A stretch of DNA of 64,000 bases from Euglena gracilis (GCA_039621445.1 CP154954.1:48835847-48899846); one strand, 5' to 3'; numbered from the stretch's first letter, positions 1 through 64,000 are shown. Numbers and translations are program-made. Notes: generated from the sequence alone by a model not told the origin.

Positions 1-594
1 TCGAGATCGGCCGCTTAAGTCGAAGCACAGATTCATGCATTTTTCTATTGGGTAGATCACTAGATGCATGAATGGATGGATGATGAATGGATGTGTAGAT
101 GGAGAGATAACCTTCCCAAAATAATTTTGCCCCCAAAACCTTTGATCGATGGGCCACGTTTCTCATAAAGCAGTCAAATGGAGATTTTACTGGTAATTAT
201 AAAGTAATTCACTGCTTCTATTCATCGGACAACAAAACGTTGTGGCAATTGGGTTTGATTTTTGTTTGCGCTTACCGCCTCCTGATTTCCGAAAAGATGC
301 ATCATTTTTCATGTTGTCCCTGGTGGGGGGCAACATTATTTGGACGGATCTCTTCGGCCTCCCTCTGCAAAAGTTATTTGGGCATGCAAAGCTTCAGGGC
401 ACTGCAAAGTTATTTGGGGGGTTCAGCTTGGTTGAAAACTGACGGATGGATAGATTGATGGATTGATTTATGAATGGACGGATGGACGGATGGTTCGAGG
501 ACGGACGGAATCGGCCAACGGACGATGGGTGGACGGGAGGAGAGATGAGATATCTCGCCGGGTGGTTGAACCACTGCCATCTTCCCCACAACAG

Positions 595-11202
<10,608 letters not shown>

Positions 11203-11664: not shown

Positions 11665-12471
11665 CAGGGGGGGGGGAAATTATGCGGTCCGCATTATTCC
11701 GCATTTTTTTTTCCGCATTTTTCCGCATTTCCGCATTATTATTCCGCATTATCCGCATTTTTTTCCTTTCTCCTTCCGCATTTCAGTTTCCGCATTTATC
11801 GCATTATTACGCATTTCCGCATTTTCGCATATTTACCATTTTTGTAAATTTTTCCGCATTTTTTCCGCATTTTCTCGCATTTTGAAGACCGCCATTTTTT
11901 CTTTTTCACGCATTTTTCTTCCCGCATTTTTACTCTTCCGCATTTTTTCCCGCATGTAATTTCCGCCATTATCCTCCTCCCCGTGCCCAGTTTTCCGCAT
12001 TTTTTCCGCATAATTATTAACTGCATCTTTAGCATAATTTCCACATTTTTCCGCATAATTTCCGCATTTTTTGTGAATTTTTTACATTTCAGGTCAACTA
12101 CAAGGTTCATTGTTTCCCCAATATGTTGGAGCACAAGTGCTCGTCTTTTCATCTCTCTGTTTTATGCATAATTTGTGCTTTGTTTTTCCATTGCATTTTG
12201 GTGACTTCTGGCAAGCTTGGGCATCGGCGATGGGAATCAAATAGCATCGGGACCCTGCATATTGTGAGGTAGAAATATATCTATCCTCTCCATGTGACCT
12301 GGGACTCCACAGAATTTCGGCATATTTTCCGCATTTTCCGCATTTTTCCGCATATTTTCCGCATTTTTTTCCCGCATAATTTCCGCATAATTTCCGCATT
12401 TTCCCGCATTTTTCCGCATAATTTCTGCATTTTTTCCCCGCCTGCCAGACCGCATAATTTCCCCCCCCCTG
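11665..12471. mobile_element. Non-autonomous hAT-like element, family 1 (internal-deletion relative of 49181-50564)
   Basis: TIR caggggggggggaaattatgcggtc ... gaccgcataatttccccccccctg; TTCCGCAT arrays; flanks cacattt/cccattt; empty site in copy 2 at ~36145. Confidence 0.92.
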
Positions 12472-13373: not shown

Positions 13374-13491
13374 TGTGTGTGTGTCTGTGTGGAATAACAC
13401 GTTGCACCCAGCGAAACTCCAGCCATTGGTGGTCCTGACAGCCATCTGTGGCAGTTTTTCTGGCATTTGGCCAAGTACTCTCAACGCTCAC

Positions 13492-13883
13492 CACCAGGGG
13501 GTTCTGGAGCTGGAGGGGACCCCCGGGGGAGGTCCAGCCAGCCAGCAGCCCCAGCCCGATGCGAACCTCCCCGGGGCAGGGTTCGTTGAAATAAAGTTGG
13601 GGCCAGCCCCGCGAAACCGGGCTCGACCGAAAGCAAAACAATTTGGGAAATTTAGAAAAAAAAACAAATTGGCATTTTCGAGGATTTTTGTCGGGGGGTT
13701 TGTCACCTCAAAATTTTTGCTGAAACGTCCTAAGCCAGTTGGTTTTGGCTCTTTTTTGCCTGTTTTCGGGCACGAGCTGGAAACGATATGAGCTCAGTGT
13801 CTCTCCCTCTCCTTGGACCCCACCCACTTTTCCAGTTGGCTGGCTGGATGCCCCCCGGGGTCTTCAACAAAACCCTTGCTGAA
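13492..13883 (+). other. Putative non-conventional intron made from a repeat element (copy 37125-37523)
   Basis: CAG at +4..6 (cagggggtt) and TTG at -8..-6 (aacccttg). Removal joins ...LAKYSQRS-P-LAANLLLDLSGLHID in frame. Contains the dispersed gaaataaagttgggccagcc motif. Confidence 0.55.
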
Positions 13884-15803
13884 CCCTGGCCGCTAATCTT
13901 CTCCTGGATCTCTCCGGCCTCCATATCGATCCAACTTCTGCCCCTTCCCCCGGCATGTCCTCTTGCAGTCGTGGAGAGCTGCATCCCTGCAAGTGCATGT
14001 CGGTGAGCACAGACGTGCTTTAATGACGTTCTTTTTTTTTTAACACCAACATTCTGTTGGTAGCATAGGCTCTCAGTTTGTGAACTCTTCGGAGGGCCTC
14101 TGTTGTCAGAACCGGGGTACGTGTAACCCCTTGACGACCTCCAACAGGAAACGGCGGCCGAATGGTGGTGCTTTATTTTTTAAATGTGACCTTAGCAGAA
14201 TGGGTGAAATGAAGGGAAATGGTGGACGTGGGCTCTCCTTTGCATTAACATTGGCCCACCGAAGCAGAGATGCCTGATACAAGGATACCAGCGCCAGGAA
14301 TGGGATGCTTTGGGGATGTCAAGAAAAGTCACCTCCCTCCCGCCTCACACCAATGGATGAGGATGTGTCTGTTGCTGTATTCACTCATACTGGATTTCCG
14401 TTTGTGTGCGTGCGCGCAATTTGTTTTTGAAAAACGCGTCCTCATTTTTTTTTGTATTGTTTCGACCCCAAAATATTTCGTTGACATCCAAAAATCAAAG
14501 AAAAACTTTGCTTTTACCGCCCAGAACGCCTGAACTCGCGGATGTATGAAAGAAGACCAAAAAAATATTTCGAAAGAAACACGCGCAAACACGCACACAC
14601 ACGCGTGCACGTTGCAAACATACACACTGTGGTAGCAAGGTAGCAAGAAGGAGTAAATATTTGGACGAAATCCACAGGCATTGGCTCATGTCCTTCGACC
14701 CACAAGGTGAAGTTCACGTTGCATTGTTGCATTCTCGCAGTGAAATCCCCTCTGCTTCGTTGATGCAAGATGTCGAAACCAAAGAGCCCACAAACATTGG
14801 GCATGACCTTTCGACTCCGCCGTCGGCTCTGCACAAGGACAAACGTTGGGTCAGCTTTCTTCCAAATGGCACTCCAAATCTCATACTCTCGCCGAATTGC
14901 GCCCACATGTTGGTCCAGGGCTGAAGGCGAATCCTCGAAACCCCATGTGTGTGGGTGGGGGGGGGTCGACCCCCCCACACTCATTCTGGTGGGTGGGGGG
15001 GGGGTCCGACCCCCACCAGGCCTTCCCTACAGCCTTGTGTCACCCCCAAATTGTCTCCAGCGGTGTGAACGTTCCCCCCCCTCTTTGGCCAGTCCACAGG
15101 GCCTCCACACCGCCTCCAGAGGTGGCCCCCCTGTCTCGTTGGCCTTGCCGCCAGCACCCGATGCCAAGTCGCTGGCAGAACCGCTTGCCCGCGGCCCTGC
15201 AAAGGTTCTGTGGTGTCGCACGCTGGCCGGGGCCGGGAGTGCCAGTCACAGTGTCTCCATGGAAGGCCAGTGGGGCTGTGCTGGGTCACCCCTTGGTTGC
15301 ACTGAGGCTTCTGGCTTGTTTATGGCGCGCGACCTCCGGTTCTGGCCCAATGTGCTGTGTGGCGAGTGGCCGGGGACCCCATATATCAGTGCTCCTTTTG
15401 TTGCTCCGCCTGGCTGGGTGAGCAACTCTGGTGTAAATTCCAGCGCTATAGGGATGTACACCCACCTTGTGTGGTTGGTGTGGTCCCCGTGGGTGGGTCC
15501 ACACCCTTGCTGCCCCAGTGCTGCACTTGCCTCCTGCCCTCTTCCCACTTTTCTGTGCGGGGACTTGAAAGTTCCACTGTCCTCAGGGTCCTGCAGCTTC
15601 AGTAAACCTGGTTCACCAAGCCTTGGCCTCAGGGCGGGTGGCAGGTGGGTGGTGTGCTGCTAGGTACGCAGTTCCCTGGCATCCCTGGGGGGGGGGGGAC
15701 TGAAATTTTTTTCTGGCCACGCCGAAGATTGGCCTGATTTTCAATTTCGTTGGGAAGAATATGTGCAAAGGCTTTCTAGAGTCCAACCGACGACCAAGAA
15801 CTC

Positions 15804-16745
15804 TTGTCACTTTTGATTTCCTCCGTAAATGAAACCGATGGAGACCGTTTGAGGCTCCTAAGGGGGACGGTAATGATCACAAATTTTCAACAGGCCTGGG
15901 ATTTGTTGGAAAAAGAAAATTCCAGTGGGGCAGGAAATTGTGCGAGGCAAAAATTTGAAGAAATTCGCCTCAAGTACAAAAACGACCTGACTGAGGAGGA
16001 TTGGAAACGTTTTGAGACAGATTTTCTCATGTTGCAAAATTTTGCAAAAGATGTGACCGACGCCGACACATATCGGGTTTTAAGACGGGAAATTCCCAAA
16101 TTTTACAACGAGAGAATTGTCAGGGAACAAGAAAGGGGAGTTGATTTGAACGTGGTGGAGGTAAGAAATTTGCACTTGGTGGATCCCCACCAAAGTGCAA
16201 GGGGTTTTGGTGAGTGCATTGGAGGGATGGATCCACGTTACATTTTGTCTCCGTGATGTTTTTTGGGACCATTTTGAGGTGACGGTTGGGTCGGTAAGGG
16301 ACAAAAACTTGCTTCTTTCACTCAATGGACGAAATGTGTCAAACGGACAAAAATTGCAAGTTTCCTCCAAAGAATTTCAACTTCCCCCCACAGAAATCAT
16401 GGGAATGATGCACAAATGGCTCATGCAAAAGGAGCAAGCCGTTGAATTTAAATGGCATAGTGCCCCCCCCCCCCCGGAACGGAATCAAACCCCCCAATGG
16501 ATGAGGGTGACAGAAGTTTCCACAGAATCGGAAAATGAGAATTTTTCTCAAAATTCTCAAACAAAAAAGGAGGGGGGGACACATCAAAGTTTTTGAATCA
16601 CCCCGTTTCCATTCAAAATATGGAAGAAGCACCACTCCCTACCCCACCCCCACAACAAAAATCAATGAAGGTGTAATCAGAGCACTGTGCGAACGTTGTA
16701 GTAAGATGGGGCATATTGCCGCCAAGTGTTGGGCAAAATTGCCGG
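15804..16745 (+). mobile_element. Degenerate gag/ORF1-like retroelement remnant (copy ~39443-40895, split by a MITE)
   Basis: AT-rich intron-less frameshifted ORFs (15804-16256, 16195-16596) followed by CERCSKMGHIAAKC (CX2CX4HX4C). Codon style differs from host exons. No RT seen. Confidence 0.55.
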
Positions 16746-17357
16746 ATGCAAATCAAGGCCTTTGGGGTTGGGTTGCTGGGGGGGGTGGGCTCCCACCAGG
16801 CCGCCCCCCTGTGTGGGTCCCCTCAACACCCGGTGGGACGTTGACTTCCCTCGGTGGGTCAATAGCCGTGGCTGGGGGGCGTCGCAGGGCTGCGGTCCGC
16901 TGCCCCACAGAGCCAGGACCCGGCGCAGGACCTGAGAGGGCGGAAGAGGCGACGGGGCGAGGACAACGATGGGGCAGAGGAGGGGGAGGAGGAGGAGGAG
17001 GGCTGCCGGCCACTGAAGAAGTACACGGACGGCTTTTTTTGCCAGGGAAGAGCATTCTGGCATTTGGGGGGAGGGTTTTCTGGGTCCTTTCTGGATTGGC
17101 TCACCCCGGCAACTGAAGGCACTGATTGGGTTGACTAATAGGCTTGTGTGTTTTTCCCCCCTGAATGGGAGGCATTTTGACCGGGGCTGGATCTGAAAAA
17201 GAAGCCTGTCTGCCACCCATTTCCTGTGCACAGGTCAGAGCTGTCTGTGCGGCCATCCGTCCCCGCAGTACCCAACAGTGTGGCCGGCGATGGGAAGCAG
17301 TCGCCGGGGGTCGTCTCGGGGCCGCAGTCCGCTGCCCCACAGAGCCAGGACATGGCA

Positions 17358-19343
17358 GAGCAGGGGTTTTCTTCAGACGGCGGTGACCCTGCCCCCTGCT
17401 GGGGAGGTCCAGCCAGCCAGAGCTGGCTGGACTTTTTTTTCCCAATCCCATCCGGGCTGCAGACAGTGACTAGACCAGTGACTATTGACGTCTGGTTGCG
17501 AAGTGCAGAAAAGTGTTTCTTCTTTTAAAGCCCAAGACTGCAAAAAACCAAGCCAATAATTGCAGCAGACCGAGGAATTTTTTTTGTGGTGAACCTCGCT
17601 GTCTCCCACTGGGTTTGGCTTAATTTTGAGCCTATTTTCGGCGTGAAGTGCCAGAAGATTTTTAACCTTGAAAAGTGGGTTCCCTGGTCTTAAACAAAAC
17701 AAGCAAAACAGCCCCACACCAGACCCTGCCCACAGCACAAAACCCAGTGCCCAAAGAACAAAGAACCAAAGAAGAAGGCAGCCCAACCCAAAGGTGGCAA
17801 AAACCCAACACACAAATCCCAACACCCAGTGCACAGCAAAAAACAAACAAACCCAATCTCGTTGACAAACCGCCAAAATGAAAAACTCTGATGATGAAAA
17901 ACCCACAAATCCCAGAAACGGCAGCCAAAACCCGAGATAGAAACACGTCAAACCTCAAATAGAAAGACACCACAGGTGAGAACACGGCCCCCAAACCCCA
18001 CAAATTGAAAACAAATTTCACCAGTCACAGAAACCGTCCAAAGCAGAGCTGTCCCATGCAAAGCCCACCAACTCAACCCCCAGATGGCAGTCAAATGAAC
18101 CCCCCTCCCAAATAATCTGGCGGGGCCCTTGCTCCTGGCAGTGGCCGAATAACTTGGCGGGGGAGGGGCAAAAAAGATGGTTCCAGTAACTTGGCACCCC
18201 CTTTTTTAGGCAAAATTCTTTTACGACGTTGAAAAAAGGGCCCAAATAACCTGGCGGGGGGCAGGGTCAAAAGTTGGTTCCAATAACCTGGCACCTCCGC
18301 CAGGTTATTTGGGGGGGGGGGGGCTAAATCCTGAGGACAGCACAAAAAAAAAACCAAGATGACGCTCAAAAACCACTCAACCCCCGAAAAACCCAGAAGA
18401 CAACAGATGTGTGAGACTGGGGGGGTGGCTGTCACAGTTGCCAATCTTGCAAGCAGAGATAGTCACCAGAGACAAGTGGAAACAAAAGGAGGAGGAAACA
18501 ACACAGGAAGAAAAGTGGCAGTTAACAATGGCTGGCCACTGGACACAAGCTCACAGGCTTGTGTTGCCAGTCTGGACAGCTCCCAGTGCTCTCAGTGAGC
18601 CCAAACGATTCAAACCAAATCACCTGCACCAGCAGGGCTTGTGAACAACCTTCTGTTGCTGAGTCAATCTGGAGATGCAACAGAGTGTGATTTTGATTCC
18701 ACCAGTGTGCACAGGTGACCGAACATTAGCAAATGTGACAGAAGAGAAAAAAGGGAAAGGAACCAATTAGGATTTTCCTTAGCTGCGAACTTTTTTGCAA
18801 GTTTAAGACTAACCTAGCTCTCCATCCGTCCAGACCAAAGGAATTTCGTCCGCCGTCTATCTACATCAAAGGAATTTCTTCCAGCTGGCCGTCCGTCCGT
18901 CCGTCCGTCTGTCTGCCGGTCTGCACAGTTCCGTAGCAGAACCAAGGTGTGGAAACAAGGCGACTGGCAAAAAAATCACAGACACCTGTAACCTGACACC
19001 GGGAACCTGTGAGCGTAAAATGTTTCAGAGGCACCCATGACCTTTCACACTGGAGGGGGATAACTTTGGGGTTTACCCCTTTTTGCCTCTATCACCTTCG
19101 CCCCCCCCCCCCCGCCGCCGGCCCAGTGGTCCGCTGAAATAAAGTTGGGCCAGCCAGGGAAGCTGGGCTGGACTGAAATATTTGGTCCAGTGCCAAGATT
19201 TTTTTTTGAAAAAAGGCTCCTCCCTGCAAACTGCAAAGAAGCCCCCCCCCCCCCCCCACCCCCCCCCCCCCGGAACCCCACCCCCCCCCCCCCCCCCCCG
19301 CGGAAACCCCGCGGGGGAGGTCTTTAAGAAAACCCCTGCGGCG
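17358..19343 (+). other. Non-conventional intron coinciding with a TIR transposon (element 17361-19338)
   Basis: 13-bp perfect TIR caggggttttctt/aagaaaacccctg; flanks tggcagag/cggcggag; CAG at +4..6 and CTG at -8..-6; splicing gives SQDMA|EDLRGRKRRR. Confidence 0.8.
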
Positions 19344-20267
19344 GAGGACCTGAGAGGGCGGAAGAGACGACGGGGCGAAGACAATGATGGGGCAGAAGAG
19401 GATGAGGAGGAGGAGGAGGGCTGCCCGCCACTGAAGAAGTACACAGACGGCTTTTTTTTGCCAGGGAGGAACATTCTGGCATTTGGGGGGTGGTTTTCGG
19501 GGTCCTTTCTGGATTGGCGCACCCTGGCAAATTAATTGACTGATTGGGTTGAATGACAGTTTCTTTTTTTTAATGCGAGGTACACTCGTTGGGGCTGGTT
19601 CTTAAAATGAATCCTGTTTGCCACCCATTCTTTGTGCACAGGTCAGAGCTGTCTGTGCGGCCATCTGTCCCTGCTGTACCCAACAATGTGGCTGGCGATG
19701 CGACGTGCGTTCCAGAGCTCACTACGACAGACATCCAGCCCTGGTCACCGAGCGCTGCCGCCCCCGTCCAATAACAGAAGTTGCGAAATCCAGACCCTTC
19801 AGGAGCGTTTTTCAAACAAAAACTCTGCTCTGAGTATTGAGTACTGAGTACTGAGCTCCGACTAAGCAAAAGCCTGGCCAGGATCGACCCTCGGTGGGGT
19901 GCGATTGACAGGTGCGCCATGGCACAAAACACCCCCAAGGTCTTTCAAAAGAAGCCTGGAGATGCCGTGCGAGGAGCAGGCACCCCATAGCACCCCATCC
20001 GCCCCCCCCCCCCCGGGGGGGGGTTGGGTTTTTGGGTGCCTGCCCATACCAGGCACCCCCTCTGACCCCGGCGCCAAAGGCACCGGGGGCCTGGAAAAGG
20101 CCATTTTCAATGAAACTTTTCTTGGTTCCCCCGGACCCCTCCCCCCCCGGGGGTGTGCCTGCTGCTAGGGGCAGGCACCCTATAGCACCTACCCCCCCCT
20201 CCCCCCCGGTCAGTAAGCACAAGCCTGGTATTGGCTTTACAACTTTCCTCATAAACGGAAATTTTCT

Positions 20268-20309
<42 letters not shown>

Positions 20310-22265: not shown

Positions 22266-35686
<13,421 letters not shown>

Positions 35687-37006: not shown

Positions 37007-40000
37007 TGTGTGTGTGTCTGTGCGGAATAACACGTTGCACCCAGTGAAACTCCAGCCATTGGTGGTCCTGACAGCCATCTGTGGCAGTTTTTCTGGCATT
37101 TGGCCAAGTACTCTCAACCCTCACCACCAGGGGGTTCTGGAGCTGGAGGGGACCCCTGGGGGAGGGGGTCCAGCCAGCCAGCAGTCCAGCAGCCCCAGCC
37201 CGATGCGAACCTCCCCGGGGCAGGGTCCGTTGAAATAAAGTTGGGGCCAGCCCCGCGAAACCGGGCTCGACCGAAAGCAAAACAATTTGGGAAATTTAAA
37301 AAAAACAAACTGGCATTTTCGAGGGTTTGTCGGTGGTGTTTTCACCTCAAAATTTTTGCTGAAACATCCTAAGCCAGTTGGTTTTGGCTCTTTTTTTGCC
37401 TGTTTTCGGGCACGAGCCAGAAACGATATGAGCTCAGCGTCTCTCCCTCTCCTTGGACCCCACCCACTTTTCCAGTTGGCTGGCTGGATGCCCCCTGGGG
37501 TCTTCAACAAAACCCTTGCTGAACCCTGGCCGCTAATCTTCTCCTGGATCTCTCCGGCCTCCATATCGATCCAACTTCTGCCCCTTCCCCATCTCGGCAT
37601 GTCCTCTTGCAGTCGCGGAGAGCTGCATCCCTGCAAGTGCCTGTCGGTGAGCACAGACGCATTTTAATGACGCTCTTTTTTTTCATCACCAACATTCTGT
37701 TGGTAGCATAGGCTCTCAGTTTGTGAACTCTTCGGAGGGCCTCTGTTGTCAGAACCGGGGTATGTGTAACCCCTTGACGACCTCCAACGGGAAACGGTGG
37801 CCGAATGGTGGTGCTTTATTTTTCAAATGTGACCTTAGCAGAATGGGTGAAATGAAGGGAAATGGTGGACATGGGCTCTCCTTTGCACTAACATTGGCTC
37901 ACCGAAGCAGAGATGCCTGATCCAAGGATACCAGCGCCAGGAATGGGATGCTTTGGGGATGTCAAGAAAAGTCACCTCCCTCCCGCCTCACACCAATGGA
38001 TGGGGATGTGTCTGTTGCTGCATTCACTCATACTGGATTTCCGTTTGTGTGCATGCGCGCAATTTGTTTTTAAAAAAACGCGTCGTCGTTTTTTTTTTGT
38101 GTTGTTTCGACCCCAAAATATTTTGTTGACATCCAAAAATCAAAGAAAAACTTTGCTTTTACCGCCCAGAACGCCTGAACTCGCGGATGTATGTATGAAA
38201 GAAGACCAAAAAAATATTTCGAAAGAAACACGCGCAAACACGCACGCACGCGCGTGCACGTTGCAAACATACACACTGCGGTAGCAAGAAGGAGTAAATA
38301 TTTGGACGAAATCCACAGGCATTGGCTCATGTGCTTCCACCCACAAGGTGAAGTTCACGTTGCATTGTTGCATTCTCGCAGTGAAATCCCCTCTGCTTCG
38401 TTGATGCAAGATGTCGAAACCAAAGTGCCCACAAACATTGGGCATGACCTTTCGACTCCGCCGTCAGCTCTGCACAAGGACAAACGTTGGGTCCGCTTTC
38501 TTCCAAATGGCACTCCAAATCTCATACCCTCGCCGAATTGTGCCCACCTGTTGGTCCAGGGCTGAAGGCGAATCCTCGAAACCCCATGTGTGTGGGTGGG
38601 GGGGTCGACCCCCACACCCATTCTGGTGGGTGGGGGGGGTCCGACCCCACCAGGCCTTCCCTACAGCCTTGTGCCACCCCCAAATTGTCTCCAGCAGTGT
38701 GAACGTTCCCCCCCCCCTTTGGCCAGTCCACAGGCCTCCACACCGCCTCAAGAGGTGGCCCCCCTGTCTCGTTGGCCTTGCCGCCAGCACCCGATGCCGA
38801 GTCGCCGGCAGAACCGCTTGCCCGCGGCCCTGCAAAGGTTCTGTGGTGTCGCACGCTGGCCGGGGCCGGGAGTGCCAGTCACAGTGTGTCCATGGAAGGC
38901 CAGTGGGACTGTGCTGGGTCACCCCTTGGTTGCACTGAGGCTTCTGGCTTGTTTATGGCGCGCGACCTCTGGTTCTTGCCCAATGTGCTGTGTGGCGAGT
39001 GGCCGGGGACCCCATATATCAGTGCTCCTTTTGTTGCTCCGCCTGGCCGGGTGAGCAACTCTGGTGTAAAAAAAATTCCAGCGCTATAGGGATGTACACC
39101 CACCTTGTGTGGTCGGTGTGGCCCCCGTGGGTGGGTCTACACCTTTGCACCCCAGTGCTGCACTTGCCTCCTGCCCTCTTCCCACTTTTCTGTGCGGGGA
39201 CTTGAAAGTTCCACTGTCCTCAGGGTCCTGCGGCTTCAGTAAACCTGGTTCACCAAGCCTTGGCCTCGGGGCGGGTGGCAGGTGGGTGGTGTGCTGCTAG
39301 GTTCGCAGTTCCCTGGCATCCCTGGGGGGGGGGGAACTGAAATTTTTTTCTGGCCACGCCGAAGATAGGCCTGATTTTCAATTTCGTTGGGAAGAATATG
39401 TGCAAAGGCTTTCTAGAGTCCAACCGACGACCAAGAACTCTTGTCACTTTTGATTTCCTCCGTAAATGAAACCAATGGAGACCGTTTGAGGCTCCTAAGG
39501 GGGACGGTAATGATGGCAACAGGCCTGGGATTTGTTGGAAAAAGAAAATTCCAGTGGGGCAGGAAATTGTGCGAGGCAAAAATTTGAAGAAATTCGCCTC
39601 AAGTACAAAAACGACCTGACTGAGGAGGATTGGAAACGTTTTGAGACAGATTTTCTCATGTTGCAAAATTTTGCAAATGATGTGACCGACGCCGACGCAT
39701 ATTGGGTTTTAAGACGGGAAATTCCCAAATTTTACAACGAGAGAATTGTCAGGGAACAAGAAAGGGGAGGTGATTTGAACGGGAATGGAGGTAAGAAATT
39801 TGCTCTTGGTGGATCCCCACCAAGTGCAAGGGGTTTTGGTGAGTGCATTGGAGGGATGGATCCACGTTACATTTTGTCTCCGTGATGTTTTTTGGGACAC
39901 ATTTTGAGGTGACGGTTGGGTCGGTAAGGGACAAAAACTTGCTTCTTTCACTCAATGGACGAAATGTGTCAAACGGACAAAAATTGCAAGTTTCCTCCAA

Positions 40001-43000
40001 AGAATTTCAACTTCCCCCCACAGAAATCATGGGAATGATGCACAAATGGCTCATGCAAAAGGAGCAAGCCGTTGAATTTAAATGGCATAGTGCCCCCCCC
40101 CCCCCCGGAACGGAATCAAAACCCCCCAATGGATGAGGGTGACAGAAGTTTCCACAGAATCGGAAAATGAGAATTTTTCTCAAAATTCTCAAACGAAAAA
40201 GGAGGGGGGGACACATCAAAATTTTGAATCACCCCGTTTCCATTCAAAATATGAAGAAGCACCACTCAGGGGGGGGGAAATTGATATCCGCAATTTTTCC
40301 GCAATTTCCGCAATTTTCCGCAATTTCCGCAATTTTCCGCAATTTTCCGCAATTTTTCCGCAATTTCCGCAATTTTTCCGCAATTTTTTTCCCATTTTTT
40401 TCCCGCAGAATTTTTTTCCCACCACCGAAGATGGAAGATGCAATGAGTTCAAGCCATTCTTCAAATGGATCAACAGGTGTGCTATTGTGTTTTGTTGTTT
40501 TTCCCCCCCAGTTTACCAATTTTTCTCACAGGTGCACCACTGGTTACAGAATTGGGTGCGTCCCACCTGTGCAAAGAACATCAAGCATGTTGATTTGTGC
40601 TCGCCTGCATCGACGTGGGTGTTGCAGTGTTCTGAACCTCACAATTGAAAATTTTCTAAGTCCCCATCAGACAGAAATGTGTATACCCGATATCAATTTT
40701 TCCGCAATTTTTCCGCAATTTCCGCAATTTTTCCGCAATTTTTCCGAAGGCCTCCGATATCAATTATCCCCCCCCCCCTGCACCACTCCCTACCCCACCC
40801 CCACAACAAAAATCAATGAAGGTGTAACCAGAGCACTGTGCGAACGTTGTGGTAAGATGGGGCATATTGCCGCCAAGTGTTGGGCAAAATTGCCGGCTGC
40901 AAATCAAGGCCTTTGGGGCTGGGTTGCTGGGGGGGGGTGCGCTCCCACCAGGCCGCCCCCCTGTGGGACGTTGACTTCCCTCGGTGGGTCAATGGCCGTG
41001 GCTGGGGGGCGTCGCAGGGCCGCGGTCCGCTGCCCCACAAAGCCAGGACCCGGCGGAGGACCTGAGAGGGCGGAAGAGGCGACGGGGCGAGGACAACGAT
41101 GGGGCGGAGGAGGGGGAGGAGGAGGAGGGCGGCCGGCCACTGAAGAAGTACATGGACGGCTTTTTTTTTTGCCAGGGAAGAGCATTCTGGCATTTGGGGG
41201 GAGGGTTTTTTTGGGTCCTTTCTGAATTGGCTCACCCCGGCAACTGAAGGCACTGATTGGGTTGACTGACAGGCTTGTGCGTTTTCCCCCCCTGAATGGG
41301 AGGCATCTTCACCGGGGCTGGACCTGAAAAAGAAGCCTGTCTGCCACCCATTTCCTGTGCACAGGTCAGAGCTGTCTGTGCAGCCATCCGTCCCCGCAGT
41401 ACCCAACAGTGCGGCCGGCGATGGGAAGCAGTCGCCGGGGGTTGTCTCGGGGCCGCGGTCCGCTGCCCCACAGAGCCAGGACATGGCAGAGCAGGGGTTT
41501 TCTTCAGCTGCCGGTGACCCTGCCCCCTGCTGGGGAGGTCCAGCCAGCCAGAACACATTTTTTTTCCAATCCCATCCGGGCTGCAGACAGAGACCAGTGA
41601 CTATTGACGTCCGGTTGCGAAGTGCAGAAAAGTGTTCCTTCCTTTAACGTCCAAGACTGCAAAAAACCAAGCCAATAATTGCAGCAGACCGGGGATTTTT
41701 TTTGGTGGTGAACCTCGCTGTCTCCCACTGGGTTTGGCTAATTTTGGGTCTATTTCGGCGTGAAGTGCCAGAAGATTTTTGACCTTGAAAAGTGGGTTCC
41801 CTGGTCTTAAACAAAACAAACAAAACAGCCCCACACCAGACCCTGCCCACAGCACAAAAAAAACCCAGTGCCCAAAGAACAAAGAACCAAAGAAGAAGGC
41901 AGCCCAACGTGGCAAAAACCCAACACACAAATCCCAACGCCCAGTACACAGCAAAAAAAAAAACTCAATCTCGTTGACAAACCGCCAAAATGAAAAACTC
42001 TGATGATGAAAAACCCACAAATCCCAGAAACGGCAGCCAAAACCCGAGATAAAAACACGTCAAACCTCAAATAGAAAGACACCACAGGTGAGAACACGGC
42101 CCCCAAACCCCACAAATTGAAAACAAATTTCACCAGTCACAGAAACCGTCCAAAGCAGAGCTGTCCCATGCAAAGCCCACCAACTCAATCCCCAGATGGC
42201 AGTCAAATAAACCCCCCTCCCAAATAACCTGGCGGGGCCCTTGCTCCTGGCAGTGGCCGAATAACTTGGCGGGGGGAGAGGAAAAAAAGATGGTTCCAGT
42301 AACTTGGCACCCCCCTTTTTTAGGCAAAATTCCTTTACGACGTTGCAAAAAAGGGTCCAAATAACCTGGCGGGGGCAGGGATTTTTTTAAGTTTGGACCC
42401 CCGGGGGGGGGGAGGGGGAGGGGTAGGGTGGGTGGGTCCGCCGGACCCCCCCCCCCCCCCCCGGGGGGGGGCCCCCCCGGAGGGGGGTGGGATATACTTT
42501 TCGGCGCCGCAGGCGCCGAAAAAATTCTATTTTTAGCACTTTTCGCGATTTTTCGGCCATTTTTTGTGGGTCCCCCAGGCCCCCCCCCCCCCCGGGGGGA
42601 GCCCCCCCTCTAGGGGGTGGGTGGGTGGGGGGGAGACCCCCCCCTCCCCCCCCCCCCGGCGTATAAAAACCCCCGGGGGGGGGGCAGGGAAAAAAGTTGG
42701 TTCCAGTAACCTGGCACCCCGCCAGCTTATTTGGGGGGGGGGTTAATCCTGAGGACAGCACAAAAAAAAACAAGATGACGCTCAAAAACCGCTCGAAACA
42801 CACCCGAAAAACCCAGAAGACAGCAGATGTGTGAGACTGGGGGGGGGTGGCTGTCACAGTTGACTTTGGGGTTTACCCCTTTTTGCCTCTATCACCTTCC
42901 CCCCCCCCCCCCCCCGCCCCGGGGGCCGCTGCAAAAAAGTTGGGCCAGACAAGGCATATGGCCTGAAATATTTGGTCCAGTGCCAAGATTTTTTTTTAAA

Positions 43001-44112
43001 AAAAAGGCTCCTTGCAAACTGCAAAGAAGCCCCCCCCCCCCCCTGCGGAACCCCCGGGGGAGGTCTTTAAGAAAACCCCTGCGGCGGAGGACCTGAGAGG
43101 GCGGAAGAGACGACGGGGCGAAGACAATGATGGGGCAGAAGAGGATGAGGAGGAGGAGGGCTGCCCGCCACCGAAGAAGTACACAGACGGCTTTTTTTTT
43201 GCCAGGGAGGAACACTCTGGCATTTGGGGGGATGGTTTTCGGGGTCCTTTCTGGATTGGCGCACCCCGGCAAATTAATTGACTGATTGGGTTGAATGACG
43301 GTTTCTTTTTTCTGACTGCGAGGTACACCCGTTGGGGCTGGGTCTTAAAAGAATCCTGTTTGCCACCCATTCTTTGTGCACAGGTCAGAGCTGTCTGTGC
43401 GGTCATCTGTCCCTGCAGTACCCAACAATGCGGCTGGCGATGCGACGTGCGATCCAGAGCTCACTACGACAGACATCCAGCCCTGGTCACCGAGCGCTGC
43501 CGCCCCCGTCCAATAACAGAAGTTGCGAAATCCAGACCCTTCAGGAGCGTTTTTCAAAAAAAAACTCTGTTCTGAGTACTGAGTACTGAGTACTGAGCTC
43601 CGACTCAGCAAAAGCCTGGCCAGGATCGACCCTCGGTGGGGTGCGATTGACAGGTGCGCCATGGCACAAAACACCCCCCAAGGTCTTTGAAAAGAAGCCT
43701 GGAGATGCCGTGCGAGGGGCAGGCGCCCCATGGCACCCCATCCGCCCCCCCCCCCCCCGGGGTTGGGTTTTTGGGGGTGCCTGCCCCAAGCAGGCACCCC
43801 CTCTGACCCCTGCGCCAAAGGCCCCGGGGCCTGGAAAAGGCCATTTTCAATGAAACTTTTCTGGGTCCCCCGGACCCCTCCCCCCCCCGGGGGTGTGCCT
43901 GCTCGGGGCAGGCACCCTATAGCACCTACCCCCCCCTCCCCCCCGGTCGGTAAGCACAAGCCTGACAACTTTTCCTCATAAACGGAAATTTTCTCTGCAC
44001 ACACACTGACACACTCCATGAATGCAGTCCAGTGCTGCCACCGGCACAGGCCCGTCGCAGCCACCCACGCAGGACGCTTCCCTTGGGCAGCTGCACTCCC
44101 CCAGAGGGCGGG
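36764..44112 (+). CDS. Gene B putative N-terminal low-complexity exons (two ~60-aa repeats with RKRRR and acidic tract)
   Basis: ATG 36764 (MSALSATS|gt), exon 37045- (CETPAIGGPDSHLWQFFWHLAKY), repeat exons ~41000-41147, 41365-41488, 43087-43178 and 43384-. Several junctions and frames are unresolved and differ between copies. Confidence 0.45.
40267..40780. mobile_element. hAT-like MITE, family 2
   Basis: Same TIR and core as 5836-6323; perfect TSD caccact (40260-66 / 40781-87); empty site at ~16630 in copy 1. Confidence 0.93.
41489..43086 (+). other. Non-conventional intron / TIR transposon (element 41492-43081), copy 2
   Basis: Same ends and flanks as 17358-19343. Confidence 0.8.
42376..42675. 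mobile_element. G/C-tract-rich MITE nested in the intron-element; relative at 59034-59383
   Basis: Absent in copy 1 (~18260). Ends cagggattttt / aaaaacccccg; central cggcgccgcaggcgccg motif shared with cgcgccgaaggcgccg at 59211. Confidence 0.7.
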
Positions 44113-47400: not shown

Positions 47401-50400
47401 AGCAGCCGCCCCCCGCGGCGGTCCCCGCCGAGGCCGTCACCAACGAGGTCCAGCGCTTTGGGGCTCCCGCAATTTGCTGTGCGCCTGTGCGATGTTAAAC
47501 TGTTTGCTCATGCGCCCCGCACATGCCATGTGCACGCGCACACGTAGACTGCAGAAGGTTTAGGCCAAGCCAGGCCCAAAGGTCGGCCCAAATTTCGGCC
47601 TAAAATTCTTACCAAAACTGCATTCTTTCAATAACCCTTAACAGGCTTTCAGAAGGAGCACCACGTCCACCTCGGAGTGTCATCTGGGTAACCCTGATGG
47701 TGGCGGGGGGCACCCAGGAGGTACCTGTGCCAATATAAAAAATACAGAAATAAAAATTAATAAATATACATTAAGTGGATATTTTCACATAAGTATATAC
47801 ATATTGCAGCTGAATTCTTAATGGCCCCAGGGGCATTAATAATTCCCAGGGGTTAGCGGAAAAATTTGGGTTATGGATGGAATGGGGTCAGGGTTAGGAG
47901 TTAGGTTGGTGTTAGGCCTAATTTAGATTGGTGTTAGGTGTACCAGTTAAGCCTAAAGTTAAGCTGAACTCCTAACCCTAACCCTATTCCATCAATAACA
48001 CAAAAAAAATTGACCCCCTGGAACTTCTTAATGGCCCCAGGGGCATTAAGAATTCAGCTGCCCTATATATGTGTGTATGTGTGTATGTATGCATGTGTAA
48101 ATATACATGTGCATATATGCGTATGAATATGAATCTGTATTTGTGTATTTACATAAATGTATATGCATATGCATGTGTACAATGATGGAAGGGAGGGCGA
48201 TAATATGCACCATACAGTTTTGTTTTTTTGCAGTTGATTTTGGAGGATAAGATTGTGCATTAGAGTTTTTTGTTGTTGTTGTTGTTGTTTTGCATTTTTC
48301 ATTTTTCAATGAGTCGTTTTGGGCATCGTAAAAGGTTTTTTTCGTATGTACAGTCTTTCCAGTTTTTGGCAGGTTTTTTTTTGCCTCCTCGTCTGCCTTC
48401 CCAGAAGGCAACGTCATGTTATTGAGATAAGCCAGGTACCCTCACCTCAGGCCGTTGCCGTGGGAGAGGTGGACATTCTGTCGGTCCTGCGGACTCACAA
48501 GGGTGGCAAGAAGCAGAAGGCCGCGGATGATTTCATGGACCAGCTGCGCCGGTACTGTGAGCAGCTCCAGTCCGCCCCGCCAGCCCCACCACCTGTTGCG
48601 GAAGGCCCAGAGGTCTGTGCCGATTGCGAGCAAACCCAAAATCAAGTTTCTGCGTTCTCCGGACACAACAGATCGTCACGCTGCATTGCACATACGCGGG
48701 ACAGCCCTAATTTGCCCCAAAATTCAATACTTTCAAAATGGCGGGGCTGTTGGTGCAAGCATCGACCTGCATAGACCAGCATTTTTTCTTTCTTTCGAAA
48801 TAGCCTTTTCAAGTACCGGCCACCGAACCCCGTCAAGCTCCGCCACCTCAAGTTTGCCAGGGTCTGAAGGCCGCCCCTTCCACCCCCCCCCCCCCCCCCC
48901 CCGTGTGTGCCTTCATCCCAGGCCGCCGTGGACCCAGCCGACCCCGCGGCGGCGGAGGGGCCCCCAGGGCCCCGCAAGGCGCGCTGCTACAACTGCAAGA
49001 GCGCCGGCCACGTCGTCCGCGACTGCCCCGACAAGCTGTTCTGCACGCGCTGCCGGAAGGAGGTAAACCCCCCCCAAATAGTATTGCACCCGCAGCTCTA
49101 TTGGACGGCCGCCTCCGGCGGGGGGGGGGGGGTGCAGCACTATTTGGACCCGCAGCACTATTGGGCTGGGTGCCTCTTAGCAGGGGGGGGGGGAATTATG
49201 CGGTCCGCATTATTCCGCATTATTCCGCATTTTTCCGCATTTCCGCATTATTCCGCATTATTCGGCATTTTCCCGCATTTTTCCGCATATTTTCCGCATT
49301 TTTTTTGTAAATTTTCCGCATTTTTCCGCATTTTCGCATTTGACCGCATTTTTTTCCGCATTTTTCCGCATTTTCCCGCATTTTCCCGCATTTTTCCGCA
49401 TAATTTCCGCATTATCCCGCATTTTCCGCATTTTTCCGCATAATTACCGCATTTTTCGCATAATTTCCACATTTTTCCACATAATTTCCGCATTTTTTGT
49501 GATTTTTTTTTACGTTTCAGGTCAACTACAAGGTTCATTGTTTCCCCAAGTTTGATGAAGTCTGACCGCTCTTTTGAAGGGCAAGGATGGATGGACGTTG
49601 TATGTTTCCAGAAAGGGTGGATGTTCATTCATGGTTTTCACATACCATTGTTGCCCCACTCGCTTCTTTAATCGATGATTTGTTTGCCACATATTCTTTG
49701 CTGAAATGTTTTTCAAAAGGGTCCTAGTTCAGGTGCAAGCCCAGTTTCTGCGTGATATGTTCATCAGAGTTTTGAAATCGTTGCAGGACGGTTTGAATGT
49801 TTGCTTTGAGAAAAGCAAGGAACAAATTGAGTTTTACCGTCAACTTCGCGTGCTCAACCCAAATAATTTGCCTTTTATGTCATCAGCTCCCACAGATTAC
49901 TCAGCGTTGCGTTTGGACGGATGTGATGAAGATTTCATACAATATTTGCAATGCACAAAAAGGGATATTGACGGCACAGAGGAGTTAATTGAATGGTGGA
50001 AGACGCACCGGCCATCACTTTTTCGTGAACGTGTTTTGTTTCTGATTTCCACCCCGGTCGCCACTTCAAGTGTGGAAAGGTTTTTTTCCGTTTGTGGACA
50101 GCTGGATGCCAATCAGTGGGCTTTGTCACAAAATGCACGGAGGTTGGAGTTTATGCTTCAATTTAATGGTGATTTGTCTGGGCGTTTCACCTCTGACCTG
50201 TTCGCATTGTTTATTTGCGTCCGCGGCTTTTGAACAATGGACATACTGCCGCTGAACATTTTTATTGTGCTTTGTTTTTCCATTGCATTTTGGTGACTTC
50301 TGGCAAGCTTGGGCATCGGCGATGGAAATCAAATAGCATCGAGACCCTGCATATTGTGAGGTAGAAATATATCTGTCCTCTCCATGTGACCTGGGACTCC

Positions 50401-53290
50401 ACAGAATTTCGGCATATTTTCCGCATTTTCCGCATTTTTCCGCATATTTTCCGCATTTTTTTTCCGCATAATTTCTGCATAATTTCCGCATTTTTCCGCA
50501 TTTTTCCGCATAATTTCCGCATTTTTTCCCCGCCTGCCAGACCGCATAATTTCCCCCCCCCCTGCTCTTAGTCCCGGCCTATCACCACAGACACCCTTTT
50601 TGTCTGCTCAATGTCCTTCTCTGAGGCTAGTGAGGTCGTGTGGTTCATCTTTGGACGACTTTTGTGAGTTGCTCGGGTGGGAATTTGCCCCCTTTCCCCT
50701 CTCTGCGGATTAAAAAAGGTGCCTGCAGTAGGCTGCACCAGCTTCTACGCATTTCACATTGCTGTGATTTGGGGGGGTGCAGCACTATTGGACGCTCGCT
50801 TCATCCGGCAGGGGGTGCAGCACTATTTTGGACCCGCAGCTCTATTGGCCCCGCAGCACTATTAGGGGGGGTTTACGCCATGCCACTGTCCCCCCTGCCT
50901 GTCTGCCGCCCGTGCCGCCCCTCGGCACGCTGTCTTCCATGCCCCCCCTCCGGCTCCCCCCAGGGGCACACCGCCAACCGCTGCAAGACGTGCCACAACT
51001 GTGGCGGCCACCACCTCCTCCGCGAGTGCCCCGGCCATGTCGTGCCCTCCTCACTGTCTCGCTTCAGTGGTCCGCCAAAATTTGGGCAATGGAATTGCCC
51101 CTTCCCTGCTTTGGGGTCGGAACTCTCCGTTCACCCCCGCCAACATTCTGTCTTTGCGGAGGAAATTGAGGGCCACTGACCATCAGGGATGCTCACAAGA
51201 GGGCCGCCACGGGGGCAAACCCGTCGTGTGCAGCAAGTGCCAAAAGTCCGGGCACACCGTCAACAAGTGCAAGCAGCAGGTGGAGGGGGAGGCCCCGCCG
51301 GGGAGACCGGGGGCGACGGTGAAGGGGTTCGTCGCGGAGGCCACTGCGGAGACCATGCTCCAGATCCTCCAGGAGACGGTGTGCCTGGGCCCCGATGGCC
51401 GATGATTGCCAATCATGATCACCGGTAATTGTTTAAGACCAATAAAAGGAGGGTGCAACACTCCAAGTCCGACAAGAAACAAAATGGTATAAAATCAGGT
51501 CAGTGATCTTCTGGGCAGTTCGTGCTCCATTCTCGGGTGTGATTTTTTTCTGGTTTTTGGAGCCCCTCCCCCCAAAGCGTGCAGTTGCGACACGCTTCGC
51601 CCTCTGACTCTCTCAGGGGTTCCTTCCAGCTGGGGCAGAGGTCACTCCAGTGTTGGATCCGACGCCGCTGTGCGTTGTCCTGTGTCCCACGACGGAGGAG
51701 CGGGACGCGTTCGTCACCGCGCTCAACGGCGCCGTGCCAGCCCTCTGCCCCCCGCTGGTGGCTCACCCCGGCCCCTGAATGACAGACCACGCGGCAGGTT
51801 TGGCGGAACGATAAAGCATGGTTTTCATAGGTGCGACGTTTTTTTTTAACGCAAGTCCAATATGCTTATTGGACTTGTTATATAACAAATCATTTTACCA
51901 AATACACAATGTGTTTACAAATCACAAATAATAATGTGTTTTATTGTGTGTAATAATGTGTTTTATGGATCCATTTTGTCTTGTTGCAATTGTAAACCCC
52001 CCAGCACATTTTTTTCAGAGGCAAAATCCCCGAGCTTCCAATTTTACCTGTTTGTTTTCCCTGGAGGTGCAGGCGGTTGAGGCATATTTTTGGGAGGGGA
52101 GCAGGCTTAAGGTTGAGGGTACCCCCCCGGGGGGGGGAGCTGGACTGCAGCTAGTCCAAAATTGGCTAGTGGACATCCTAGTGGACCCCTCAGGGGGGAG
52201 GGTTCCGCTAGCAGGGTTAACAAGTGGGACTTTTTTTTCCAGCGATCCCGAAATTTTTTTGTCCACAAAAATAGACAATTTTTGGCCATTTTTTGTGATT
52301 TTTTTTGAAACAAAATATGCCAAAAAATCAAAAACCTCATTTCCACCTCGGCATGCAGCGCCAGAGGTTTTTTTTTTAACCATTTGGGGGAACAGACCCC
52401 CCCCCCCAGACCTTGCTGGTGGCTTTTCCCCCCGTGTGTGGCAAATGGCCAGCCAGTGGACCCCCCGGGGTCCTTAAGCAAAGTCCTGGTCCTGGAGGGG
52501 AGACTGGCTGAAATGGCTCCTTGTGGCAGAAAGGACTCCGGGCTCACCACAACCCCAAGCCACGCATTCCCCGCCAACGCCCCAGCGCAGCGGCCGGCCG
52601 CCACGTTGCCGCCGCGGAGGAGGTGGCGGCGCTGCTGGGCTCCCCCGCCTCCCCGCCGCCCCCCGACGAGGCCGCAGACCTCGCCCCCGCGGCCCACCCC
52701 ATCGCCCACCCCGCCGCCCTCGCCCCCCTCCCCCCCTCCGACGTCGACGCCGACCCTCCCCGACCCCCGCTGCCCAGGGTGGTGGCCCGGGGTCACCCGC
52801 CGAGTCTCCATTTCATGACAACGTTTTCAACACCGACTTCCGGCCCATTGCCATGCTCTGACCTTCGCTGTGTGCCAGTGCAGTTTTCTGCCCCCCCCCC
52901 CCCTGCTGCCCTTCCACCCAATCTTTAATTCCCCCCAAGTCTAGATTTTAACTGCCGTTGCCTGCGATCATCTGTGGTCGTCTGGTTTCAATTGAAAGCC
53001 TTCGGCAAGCTCCCCAACCCCAGTCCCGCCGGTGTTGGCGCAATTCCGTTGATTCCGCCGGTGGCTCTGCCATCCATCGGATGCCTTTGGGTCCGCCTTG
53101 GAGGCCGACCCTCAGGCCTCCCGTGGCCCGGCACACCCCGGACCAGCCCCCGCCCTGCCGGCAGAGGATCCGTTTTACAGCGCGGAGGAGACCCCCGGCG
53201 GTGGCAGCGGCGGCGCGGCGGGGCCAGAGGGGGAGGAGGGGGAGGCCCCGTACTGGTGATGGGCGGCGGGCCCTCCCATTCGCACTGCCG
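44488..53290 (+). CDS. Gene B middle: seven CCHC zinc knuckles (Air1/2, ZCCHC7/CNBP-like), RRM-like domain and Pro-rich linker
   Basis: Exons 44488-44636 (CYNCWSRTHMVDHC), 47005-47092 (CYNCNATNHSVKNC), 47299-47447 (CTFCERPGHTRNVC), 48451-48612, 48922-49062 (CYNCKSAGHVVRDC, CTRCRKE|), 50964-51032 (|GHTANRC, CHNCGGHHLLREC), 51217-51378 (CSKCQKSGHTVNKC), 51617-~51733 (...EERDAFVTALNG), ~52590-52780 and 53165/53181-53255/53290. Confidence 0.85.
47806..48061. mobile_element. MITE with 18-bp perfect TIR and internal TTAGGG/CCCTAA-like tracts
   Basis: gcagctgaattcttaatg ... cattaagaattcagctgc in TA-rich context; related sequence at ~21700-21810 and ~45185-45290. Confidence 0.8.
49181..50564 (+). 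mobile_element. hAT-superfamily DNA transposon, internally deleted, family 1
   Basis: TIR cagggggggggggaattatgcggtc / gaccgcataatttcccccccccctg; perfect 7-bp TSD ctcttag; internal transposase fragment. Confidence 0.92.
49706..50233 (+). pseudogene. C-terminal fragment of a hAT transposase (dimerisation-domain-like)
   Basis: LIEWWKTHRPSL...LISTPVATSSVERFFS matches the hAT WW...P.xS..xER.FS signature. Confidence 0.8.
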
Positions 53291-54193: not shown

Positions 54194-63498
<9,305 letters not shown>

Positions 63499-64000
63499 GT
63501 GTGCCGCAGGAGGCTGTTGCGTGGCCACGGTCGGGGGCCCAATTGATCACTGCCTTCCTGGCAAGGGACCTTTTTGGGGGTGAGGTAAAGACAAAGGGAA
63601 ATCTCAATTTTTTCCGATTTTCTGTGTGTCTCAGATTTGTTTATCGAAGCACGAGGTGCGGGGTCTAAGAATGACAATGACAATCCAGTACGCTCCCTGT
63701 CAGTCAACGACCCATACTTTGTGTCCAGATATCATGAACCATCTGTCCGGTGATACTGTGATGATCGTGCACATTGAGGGGGTGCACATTGAGGGGGACA
63801 GAACCACATTATTTTTCGGGATTTTGCAGGTTTTTTTTTGTGTGTGTGTCCTTCTGACTTCTGCCTGGAAATGAGTTTGACAAAGAGAAATCCTGCATTT
63901 GGGCCACATCTTCTCTGCCATCAAAATTTTAGATTTCTTTTGCTTTTTTTTTTGAATATTTCACAACAATTTGCAAAATGTTCACAAACTTACAAAAAAT

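Follow-up and report, generated by a model that had tools for sequence, protein, structure and literature searches.

A CAG...CTG transposon-like element in a Euglena gracilis exon is probably removed as a nonconventional intron

Results

The element, its flanks and its empty sites

A stretch of 64,000 nucleotides of G+C-rich nuclear DNA from Euglena gracilis (GCA_039621445.1, CP154954.1:48835847-48899846; here called the window, with positions counted from its first letter) holds a non-autonomous element with terminal inverted repeats (TIRs), beginning CAG and ending CTG, within an exon of a host gene. We think it probable that the element is a transposon of a kind that duplicates 8 nt of its target, that it entered a coding exon, and that it is now removed from the transcript as a nonconventional intron. 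Direct repeats and inverted repeats at its borders, an empty paralogous site, the fit of its ends to a tested splicing code and the pattern of RNA coverage are the observations that carry this reading. Coordinates of all features are collected in Table 1.

The element lies in a segmental duplication of about 24 kb, whose unit A (1-22267) and unit B (25074-45745) align in collinear blocks at 92-98% identity. Letters peculiar to A and letters peculiar to B appear in RNA and in DNA reads, so both units are present and transcribed. Within each unit one 433-bp segment is tandemly duplicated, giving repeats R1 and R2, which are 83-86% identical; R2 begins 4 bp past the end of R1. The element interrupts R2, 62 bp from its start, and R1 of unit A (16864-17292) aligns to 17296-17351 plus 19339-19700 at 84-86% identity.

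Sequence reading and a repeat search agree on the perfect 13-bp TIR described in the first-pass annotation of this DNA. The arms returned by the repeat search are 14 nt long and 100% complementary (17360-17373 and 19326-19339); the extension to about 19 bp proposed at first pass can be attained, but only with a 1-nt bulge. When up to two mismatches are allowed, the 13-mer has 11 matches in the window, compared to 4.41 expected, and the four perfect matches are the two ends of the two copies. The flanking direct repeats, TGGCAGAG on the left and CGGCGGAG on the right, match at 6 of 8 positions, as noted at first pass; the chance that random 8-mers from the window match at six or more positions is 0.0064. 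An uninterrupted paralogous site, gacc-cggcggag-gacctg, is found in unit B at 41047-41064, where it had been reported, and a second occurs in unit A (16921-16928). Between the anchors ccaggac and gacctg the empty R1 has 9 nt, and R2, with the element set aside, has 9+8 nt; if the element is taken to run from CAG to CTG, the duplication thus measures exactly 8 nt. The filled and empty sites support, and are most simply explained by, insertion of a TIR element into the second 433-bp unit.

Pfam families were found in 0 of 5 open reading frames (ORFs) of the element interior, and Rfam gave 0 matches across 16500-20300. With a length of 1.6-2 kb and one to two copies, the element falls outside the strict definition of a miniature inverted-repeat transposable element, or MITE (usually <1 kb, high copy). 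Nested within it is a block of palindromic CCAAATAACCTGGCGG repeats (17980-18437 in unit A, 42200-42760 in unit B) with a DNA word depth of 1.7-4.2e5. A G/C-rich insert of about 300 bp occurs in unit B only (42381-42690), with relatives near 59100-59400, and a 620-bp stretch occurs in unit A only (18441-19062); a few RNA reads fall in the latter region, at 18896-19124.

Fit to the nonconventional intron code, and RNA coverage

Nonconventional introns of Euglena follow a genetically defined code, 5'-N3CDG/CH'GN5-6 with a purine (R) opening the next exon, in which the donor spacer is strictly 3 nt and the acceptor spacer is optimal at 5 nt, with 6 nt tolerated (Nomura et al. 2025, PMC12501133). 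Such introns are released as circular RNA (PMC11282704). The element and its flanks read GAG-CAG...CTG-CGGCG followed by G, an exact fit to N3-CAG...CTG-N5 before a purine: CAG occupies 17361-17363 after 3 nt, CTG occupies 19336-19338, and the G at 19344 opens the exon. The borders are GA...CG, with no GT-AG borders present. Minimum free energy folds of the full stretch, 2.0 kb long in unit A and 1.6 kb in unit B, place 14 contiguous pairs between +3..+16 and -5..-18.

Reads from three RNA-seq runs (X21, X22 and X24) and one DNA run, all under the same species label, were placed on 13400-20250. Placement skipped 19233-19429 as a repeat, a stretch that includes 19344-19429 of exon Ec, the exon that begins at the element. 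Upstream, at 17312/17326 in exon Eb, there are 12 RNA reads from X21 and 13 from X22, in which letters of units A and B both occur (8 of 12 are B-type in X21). The bin 17293-17521 holds 845 read-bases for X21 and 818 for X22, and coverage ends 63-70 nt into it, at about 17356-17363, where the predicted exon ends. RNA depth is zero in 17522-17979 and in 18438-18895 in all three runs. Downstream, 25 reads from X21 and 23 from X22 that continue from 19663 carry 19409-19438 as a loose end, with the letter of unit B, placing exon Ec in mRNA. The RNA depth thus fits removal of the element, and we regard its removal in the predicted form as very likely.

The first-pass annotation held that spacers of 3 and 5 nt, together 8, let splicing restore SQDMA-EDLRG. 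The geometry of the code is exact and the RNA coverage is compatible with this proposal, in which the junction is deduced rather than seen. Likewise, the RNA-seq check it suggested for 17357/19344 finds the flanking exons covered and the interior mostly at zero, and the joint itself lies within the masked stretch.

The exon model of the host region (16865-17019, 17255-17357, 19344-19438, 19663-19732) leaves 141 codons open. Between units A and B, indels in these exons amount to 3, 0, 3 and 0 nt, and in intron segments to 4, 14, 13, 14, 2 and 4 nt. The first of these introns, 17020-17254, is the paralogue of 19439-19662, as exon Ea is of Ec; read-bases of the RNA bin 17064-17292 are consistent with an exon start near 17255.

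Relatives of the element and other nonconventional introns

A short relative of the element, at 13492-13887, is a nonconventional intron verified by RNA: the joint 13491>13888 is carried by 41, 34 and 8 RNA reads (X21, X22 and X24, respectively) and by 0 DNA contigs. This intron is 396 nt long, and so MITE-sized. It opens CAC-CAGGGGGTT; reading its 3' end backwards gives CAG-CAA-GGGTTTTGTTGAAGAC, to be compared with CAG-GGGTTTTCTTAAAGAC in the element. Beyond these common termini, intron and element have two blocks in common whose order is unchanged, one matching at 20/20 positions (13526-13545 = 17401-17420) and the other 63 nt long at 79% (13571-13632 = 19118-19178). The collinear blocks score 41 and 55, where 200 shuffles reach a maximum of 24-26. 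One subterminal block is GGGGAGGTCCAGCCAGCCAG. A single TIR family thus has members that act as nonconventional introns, a relation that the cited passages of the literature propose but do not show. An alternative element end for this intron, TTG at 13876-13878, was considered and rejected, since the RNA joint 13491>13888 disagrees with it; with that end, the real splice would remove 4 nt beyond the element plus one duplication.

A third, diverged relative (61025-61235) scores 48 and 54, compared to a shuffle maximum of 28. It sits in a GT-AG intron of a gene resembling non-canonical poly(A) polymerases or TUTases (55752-63617), for which orthologue mapping gives 6 GT-AG and 2 nonconventional introns.

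Flank identity was compared across introns that had been defined without regard to it, by orthologue mapping, frame continuity or loose ends of reads; the intron listed at first pass at 9085, which has GAG at +4..+6, is not among them. In the 3+5 register the focal element scores 6, and the others score 5, 5, 2, 2 and 0. The five others together match at 14/40 positions (P=0.115), which is not significant, and the series of decaying flank matches seen at first pass is not upheld. The register k=8 does give the highest identity, 0.42 against 0.22-0.33 across k=5-11, a peak that rests on three introns.

Age of the insertion

The filled copies in units A and B are explained by one insertion that was copied by the 24-kb duplication, rather than by two events. 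Between the units the interior of the element differs by 5-14%, with indels of 300-620 bp, while spacer and TIR are identical at 19/19 positions and the adjoining bases differ. Despite 2/8 decay in the flanks, the TIR shows 0/13 mismatches, for which neutrality gives 0.75^13 = 0.02; this is improbable for a neutral sequence, and the terminal stem, judged by this comparison of sequences, seems to be under selection. The first-pass description of a transposon caught in the act of becoming an intron is wrong. The insertion came before the 24-kb duplication, decay has brought the flank repeat to 6/8, and later indels and nested repeats have built up in the interior. The locus is an established intron with the appearance of a transposon, not one in transition.

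Link to hAT elements, and families with 7-nt repeats

Published criteria for hAT MITEs are an 8-bp target-site duplication (TSD), a TIR of 5-27 bp and a length under 4 kb; the TIR of Mar, from Drosophila willistoni, is CAG(G/A)GGTAGGC (PMC3517528). The focal element has an 8-nt duplication (its copies now at 6/8), a TIR of 13-14 bp, and lengths of 1978 and 1590 bp. Its assignment to the hAT superfamily is plausible, and we lean slightly toward it.

A hAT relic of a different family lies at 49181-50564, with CAGGGG ends, TIRs also given as CAGGGGGGG..., and dozens of subterminal TTCCGCAT repeats. Its ORF (49679-50233) taken alone matches Dimer_Tnp_hAT at E=0.027, below the Pfam cut-off. The ORF has 71 relatives at E<=0.001. 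Across 31 aligned sequences (the ORF and 30 relatives) the Pfam Dimer_Tnp_hAT domain is found in 10, with a best E of 4.3e-10, and a profile of the relatives matches the C-terminus of Hermes transposase at E=3.7e-9. On the strength of these matches, hAT elements with CAGGGG ends exist in the window.

A scan of 47 CAG...CTG inverted-repeat pairs found only the focal element and its copy to score 6/8 at k=8. In Table 1 the relic, its deletion derivative and other CAG...CTG elements appear with 7-nt flank repeats, a length unusual for hAT. The 506-bp pair at 7704-8209, moreover, misfits the nonconventional-intron rule, having a pyrimidine after the spacer. Thus CAG...CTG elements of this genome do not in general have the 8-bp length. 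The 8-bp insertion geometry that the first-pass annotation took from hAT elements at large does not generalize here.

A MITE of about 500 bp, with ends CAGGGGGGG...AATTGATATC and TCCGCAA repeats, occurs at 40267-40780 in unit B only and at 5836-6323 in unit A only, the two copies being 92% alike. Both were inserted after the A/B duplication, and each has a true empty site in the opposite unit, which for the copy at 40267-40780 is 16629-16637 of unit A. The copy at 5836-6323 lies inside the putative nonconventional intron 4840-6365; its flank repeat falls in a poly-G run.

Neighbouring features

Upstream of the host gene, 8750-9184 and 4600-6600 contain exons of an O-methyltransferase-like gene, with a weak Methyltransf_2 match (E=0.0064). 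ORFs resembling a retroelement gag occupy 15690-16834, with a weak CCHC zinc-knuckle match that falls short of the Pfam cut-off (E=0.039); DNA word depth there is 1e4-3.6e4 and RNA depth essentially zero, the pattern of a silent high-copy element between expressed exons. Other zinc-knuckle matches occur at 48868-49443 (E=5.4e-6) and 50866-51405 (E=0.0089). The size-fractionated RNA run X24 has a local peak at 15395-15690, reaching 8.45 in bin 15461-15689, and 39 X24 reads end at 15562 and then run into other sequence, in a stretch with very high DNA word depth. The peak is a repeat-derived transcript or a small RNA of unspecified kind.

Table 1. Features of the window discussed in the text
Feature	Coordinates	Strand	Basis or remarks
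Non-autonomous TIR element CAG...CTG, unit A, 1978 bp	17361-19338	+	Sequence reading, repeat search
Element copy, unit B, 1590 bp	41492-43081	+	
5' TIR, CAGGGGTTTTCTT	17361-17373	+	Repeat search
3' TIR, exact reverse complement of 5' arm	19326-19338	+	
Left 8-nt direct repeat, TGGCAGAG	17353-17360	+	First 5 nt exonic, last 3 = intron spacer
Right 8-nt direct repeat, CGGCGGAG	19339-19346	+	First 5 nt = intron spacer, last 3 exonic
Uninterrupted site cggcgcag, R1 of unit A	16921-16928	+	
Uninterrupted site cggcggag, R1 of unit B	41051-41058	+	Context 41047-41064
Predicted nonconventional intron, unit A, 1986 nt	17358-19343	+	GAG spacer, element, CGGCG spacer; next exon starts G
Same predicted intron, unit B, 1598 nt	41489-43086	+	Flanks and TIRs identical to unit A
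Nonconventional intron, short relative of element	13492-13887	+	RNA-verified; unit B copy 37125-37527
Third, diverged family relative	61025-61235	+	In GT-AG intron of poly(A)-polymerase-like gene; ends undefined
Nonconventional intron	57478-57878		Orthologue mapping; N3-CAG...CTG-N5 then R, 11/13 stem
Nonconventional intron	62061-62352		Orthologue mapping; N3-CAG...CTG-N5 then R, 11/13 stem
Putative nonconventional intron, CGG...CCG type	4840-6365		Frame continuity only
R1, unit A	16864-17292		
R1, unit B	40995-41423		
Exon Ea, host gene	16865-17019	+	RNA depth; start approximate; paralogous to Ec
Nonconventional intron, CAC...GTG type	17020-17254	+	Paralogue of 19439-19662
Exon Eb, ends at element	17255-17357	+	12-15 RNA reads over 17265-17326 in X21 and X22 each
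Exon Ec, begins at element	19344-19438	+	Last 30 nt = loose-end consensus of reads continuing at 19663
Nonconventional intron GTA-CAC...GTG-CGGCC then A	19439-19662	+	10-bp stem; read loose ends at 19663
Exon Ed	19663-19732	+	RNA depth 8.3+4.3 (X21); loose ends behind 19732 in 35 reads
hAT transposon relic, family distinct from element	49181-50564	+	CAGGGGGGGGGGG TIRs, CAGGGG ends, TTCCGCAT subterminal repeats; flank repeat CTCTTAG, 7/7
Deletion derivative of hAT relic, 807 bp	11665-12471		Flank repeat 6/7
Related MITE, unit B only	40267-40780		Flank repeat CACCACT, 7/7 (7-9 possible)
CAG...CTG pair, 506 bp, arms 12/14	7704-8209		Flank repeat 6/7; copy 32399-32894

Discussion

Weighing the alternatives

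Several observations weigh against the reading of the element as an inserted transposon, most likely of hAT type, that is now spliced. The empty site belongs to a paralogue about 84% identical, without being an allele. The joint 17357/19344 falls in the stretch masked during read placement and was not observed. Inside the element, RNA reads fall at low depth on 17980-18437, a repeat of high DNA word depth, and may therefore stem from other loci, and a summed depth of 3.3 (X21) at 18896-19124 is unexplained. DNA depth is 43-80 in the element interior (about one to two copies in unique parts) and 89-125 on its flanks. A query with exon Eb gave 29 candidates among longer proteins, none of which scored, and no candidate near its own length; queries of metagenome contigs with Eb and the R1 exon gave 592 and 596 pattern matches, with 0 confirmed. 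As these queries found no relatives of the host protein, the case for its being coding is made by the open frame and the indels in multiples of three. Within the window there are no further copies of the element family beyond the relatives above. The RNA-verified relative has CTG at -9..-7 and an acceptor spacer of 6 nt, and its flanks match at 2/8 in the splicing register and 5/8 in another; the 5/8 cited at first pass uses an end off the verified splice site. The cognate transposase that the first-pass annotation proposed to find is absent from the window, where the hAT relic, 30 kb from the element, has only CAGGGG in common with its TIRs. Finally, the hAT-linked family and three other CAG...CTG elements make 7-nt repeats.

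These points bear on four alternatives. The one that survives best retains a transposon-derived intron and changes its superfamily, to another that duplicates 8 bp or to a lineage specific to euglenids. That no transposase is linked to the element family, and that the only hAT-linked family here makes 7-nt repeats, speak for it. Ac-type elements have the target consensus nTnnnnAn, and CGGCGGAG has the A at position 7 without the T at position 2. The CAGGG termini, 13-bp TIR, length below 4 kb and 8-nt duplication, however, are those of hAT MITEs (PMC3517528), and hAT transposase relics with CAGGGG ends occur in the same window. We hold a non-hAT source to be possible, and the poorer choice.

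The order of events can also be reversed: both repeat units would once have carried the element, and R1 would have shed it precisely, through recombination at the 8-nt repeats or by way of a reverse transcript, so that the empty site would record a scar-free loss instead of the state before insertion. R1 and R2 are old, at 83-86% identity, so their sequence of events is not directly readable, and a spliced RNA template would yield exact loss of the element and one repeat. Yet R1 keeps the nonconventional intron 17020-17254, so such a template must have been only partly spliced; tandem duplication of a contiguous 433 bp followed by one insertion takes fewer events; and an 8-nt flank repeat is the footprint expected of insertion. 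We infer insertion into R2 and consider precise loss from R1 improbable.

About equally improbable is that the element is left unspliced, the interrupted copies being pseudogenes or transcribed piecemeal, and the exon reads coming from an element-free paralogue elsewhere. The unobserved joint, the host protein for which no relatives were found, and the excess of flank over interior DNA depth, which leaves room for another copy, are what this alternative draws on. Against it, letters of both units in RNA at 17312/17326 mean that transcription reaches the element in both interrupted copies, the predicted joint keeps an open frame and exon indels come in multiples of three, and the ends fit a tested splicing code exactly. 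The least likely source is repair of a double-strand break with filler DNA, published for a young gapC intron with eight-nucleotide direct repeats (PMC4770533), in which the 8-nt repeat would be a repair trace and the inverted ends unrelated to transposition; it contends poorly with perfect 13-bp inverted termini starting CAG and with at least two relatives in the window that share terminal and subterminal blocks in the same order, as fits a transposon family and not random filler.

A proposed course of events

In the favoured reading, that of a transposon turned intron, a non-autonomous cut-and-paste DNA transposon with CAG...CTG ends, most likely of hAT type, would have entered a coding exon of the host gene, duplicating 8 nt of target. 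The target would have been the second unit of the 433-bp tandem repeat, and the event would predate the segmental duplication. In the pre-mRNA the inverted ends could then pair as a 14-bp stem, and the machinery of nonconventional introns would cut 3 nt before CAG and 5 nt after CTG. As the two spacers, 3+5 nt, add up to the 8 nt duplicated, the mRNA would regain the pre-insertion frame, SQDMA-EDLRG; the empty paralogue in unit B reads SQDPA-EDLRG. With its frame regained the insertion would have been tolerated, and its stem since kept intact.

A wider claim may be built on this arithmetic, that the nonconventional splicing rule is the RNA-level inverse of 8-bp-staggered hAT-type integration, and that most such introns descend from CAG...CTG transposons with 8-bp TSDs. 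We regard this extension as tentative, and doubtful as it stands. If it were true, elements duplicating 8 bp would be unseen in mRNA and able to seed introns in exons, and sister families duplicating 7 bp would shift the frame and persist only outside exons. The 7-nt families of this window offer a built-in contrast for asking genome-wide whether young introns show 8 nt in the 3+5 register, and for clustering them by TIR family.

Comparison with known systems

Nonconventional introns are not a minor class, making up 71.8% of introns in Euglena agilis (PMC12501133). Their origin is called 'unclear' in literature of 2025, and a MITE-like origin 'plausible to assume' in a paper of December 2025. 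A MITE origin was proposed by Milanowski et al. 2014 (PMC3935182), in agreement with the first-pass annotation, and in the review PMC11282704 the stem is named 'TIR', the repeats at the junctions are described as 'TSD-like', and the rule of +4..6 / -8..-6 is stated. The spacers, CAG/CTG triplets, exon-start purine and terminal stem of the focal element all match the introns in PMC12501133, PMC3935182 and PMC11282704. Where the passages of those papers hold transposon origin as a hypothesis, the focal locus displays the anatomy of an insertion. The term 'hAT' is absent from PMC12501133 and from the review PMC11282704, and 'TSD' is absent from PMC12501133. In the literature searched, we found no paper that ties the nonconventional introns of euglenids to hAT or that identifies 3+5 with the length of an 8-bp duplication.

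The closest published case comes from Euglena agilis ACOI 323, whose gapC intron 4 is strain-specific, is bordered by eight-nucleotide direct repeats and is missing from other alleles (Milanowski et al. 2016, PMC4770533). An empty-site case for a nonconventional intron is therefore not new; the first-pass annotation had left its novelty unverified. Both cases concern a nonconventional intron, predicted here, whose site is unoccupied in comparable sequences and whose junctions carry eight-nucleotide repeats. The gapC intron is young, its empty sites are alleles of other strains, and its authors ascribe it to double-strand-break repair; here the intron is old, a paralogous repeat provides the empty site, and the element shows long perfect TIRs and family relatives.

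We regard the locus as a good new case of an idea already in print, with a family and a transposase context added and an arithmetic point that can be tested. What is new is the RNA-verified intron 13492-13887 as a relative of the element, and the hAT transposase relic with CAGGGG ends at 49181-50564. The hypothesis takes concrete form here, in an element with the ends of a transposon, a duplication counted at 8 nt, a comparator that lacks the element, an RNA-verified intron from the same family, and a hAT transposase relic close by.

Among hAT MITEs, Mar is alike in having no coding capacity, short TIRs starting CAG(G/A)GG, and 8-bp TSDs, and differs in being 610 bp long, multicopy and not an intron (PMC3517528). 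The focal element is 1.6-2 kb long, low in copy number at identities of at least 95%, and situated in an exon. Introners, reportedly described by Huff and colleagues in 2016, are said to be transposon-derived spliceosomal introns of Micromonas and Aureococcus. As proposed here for the focal element, an introner is a DNA transposon in an exon; its splice sites are made up from its ends and the duplicated target, and its excision restores the mRNA. Introners leave by way of the spliceosome at GT-AG borders, whereas removal of the focal element is predicted to follow the stem-dependent nonconventional rule.

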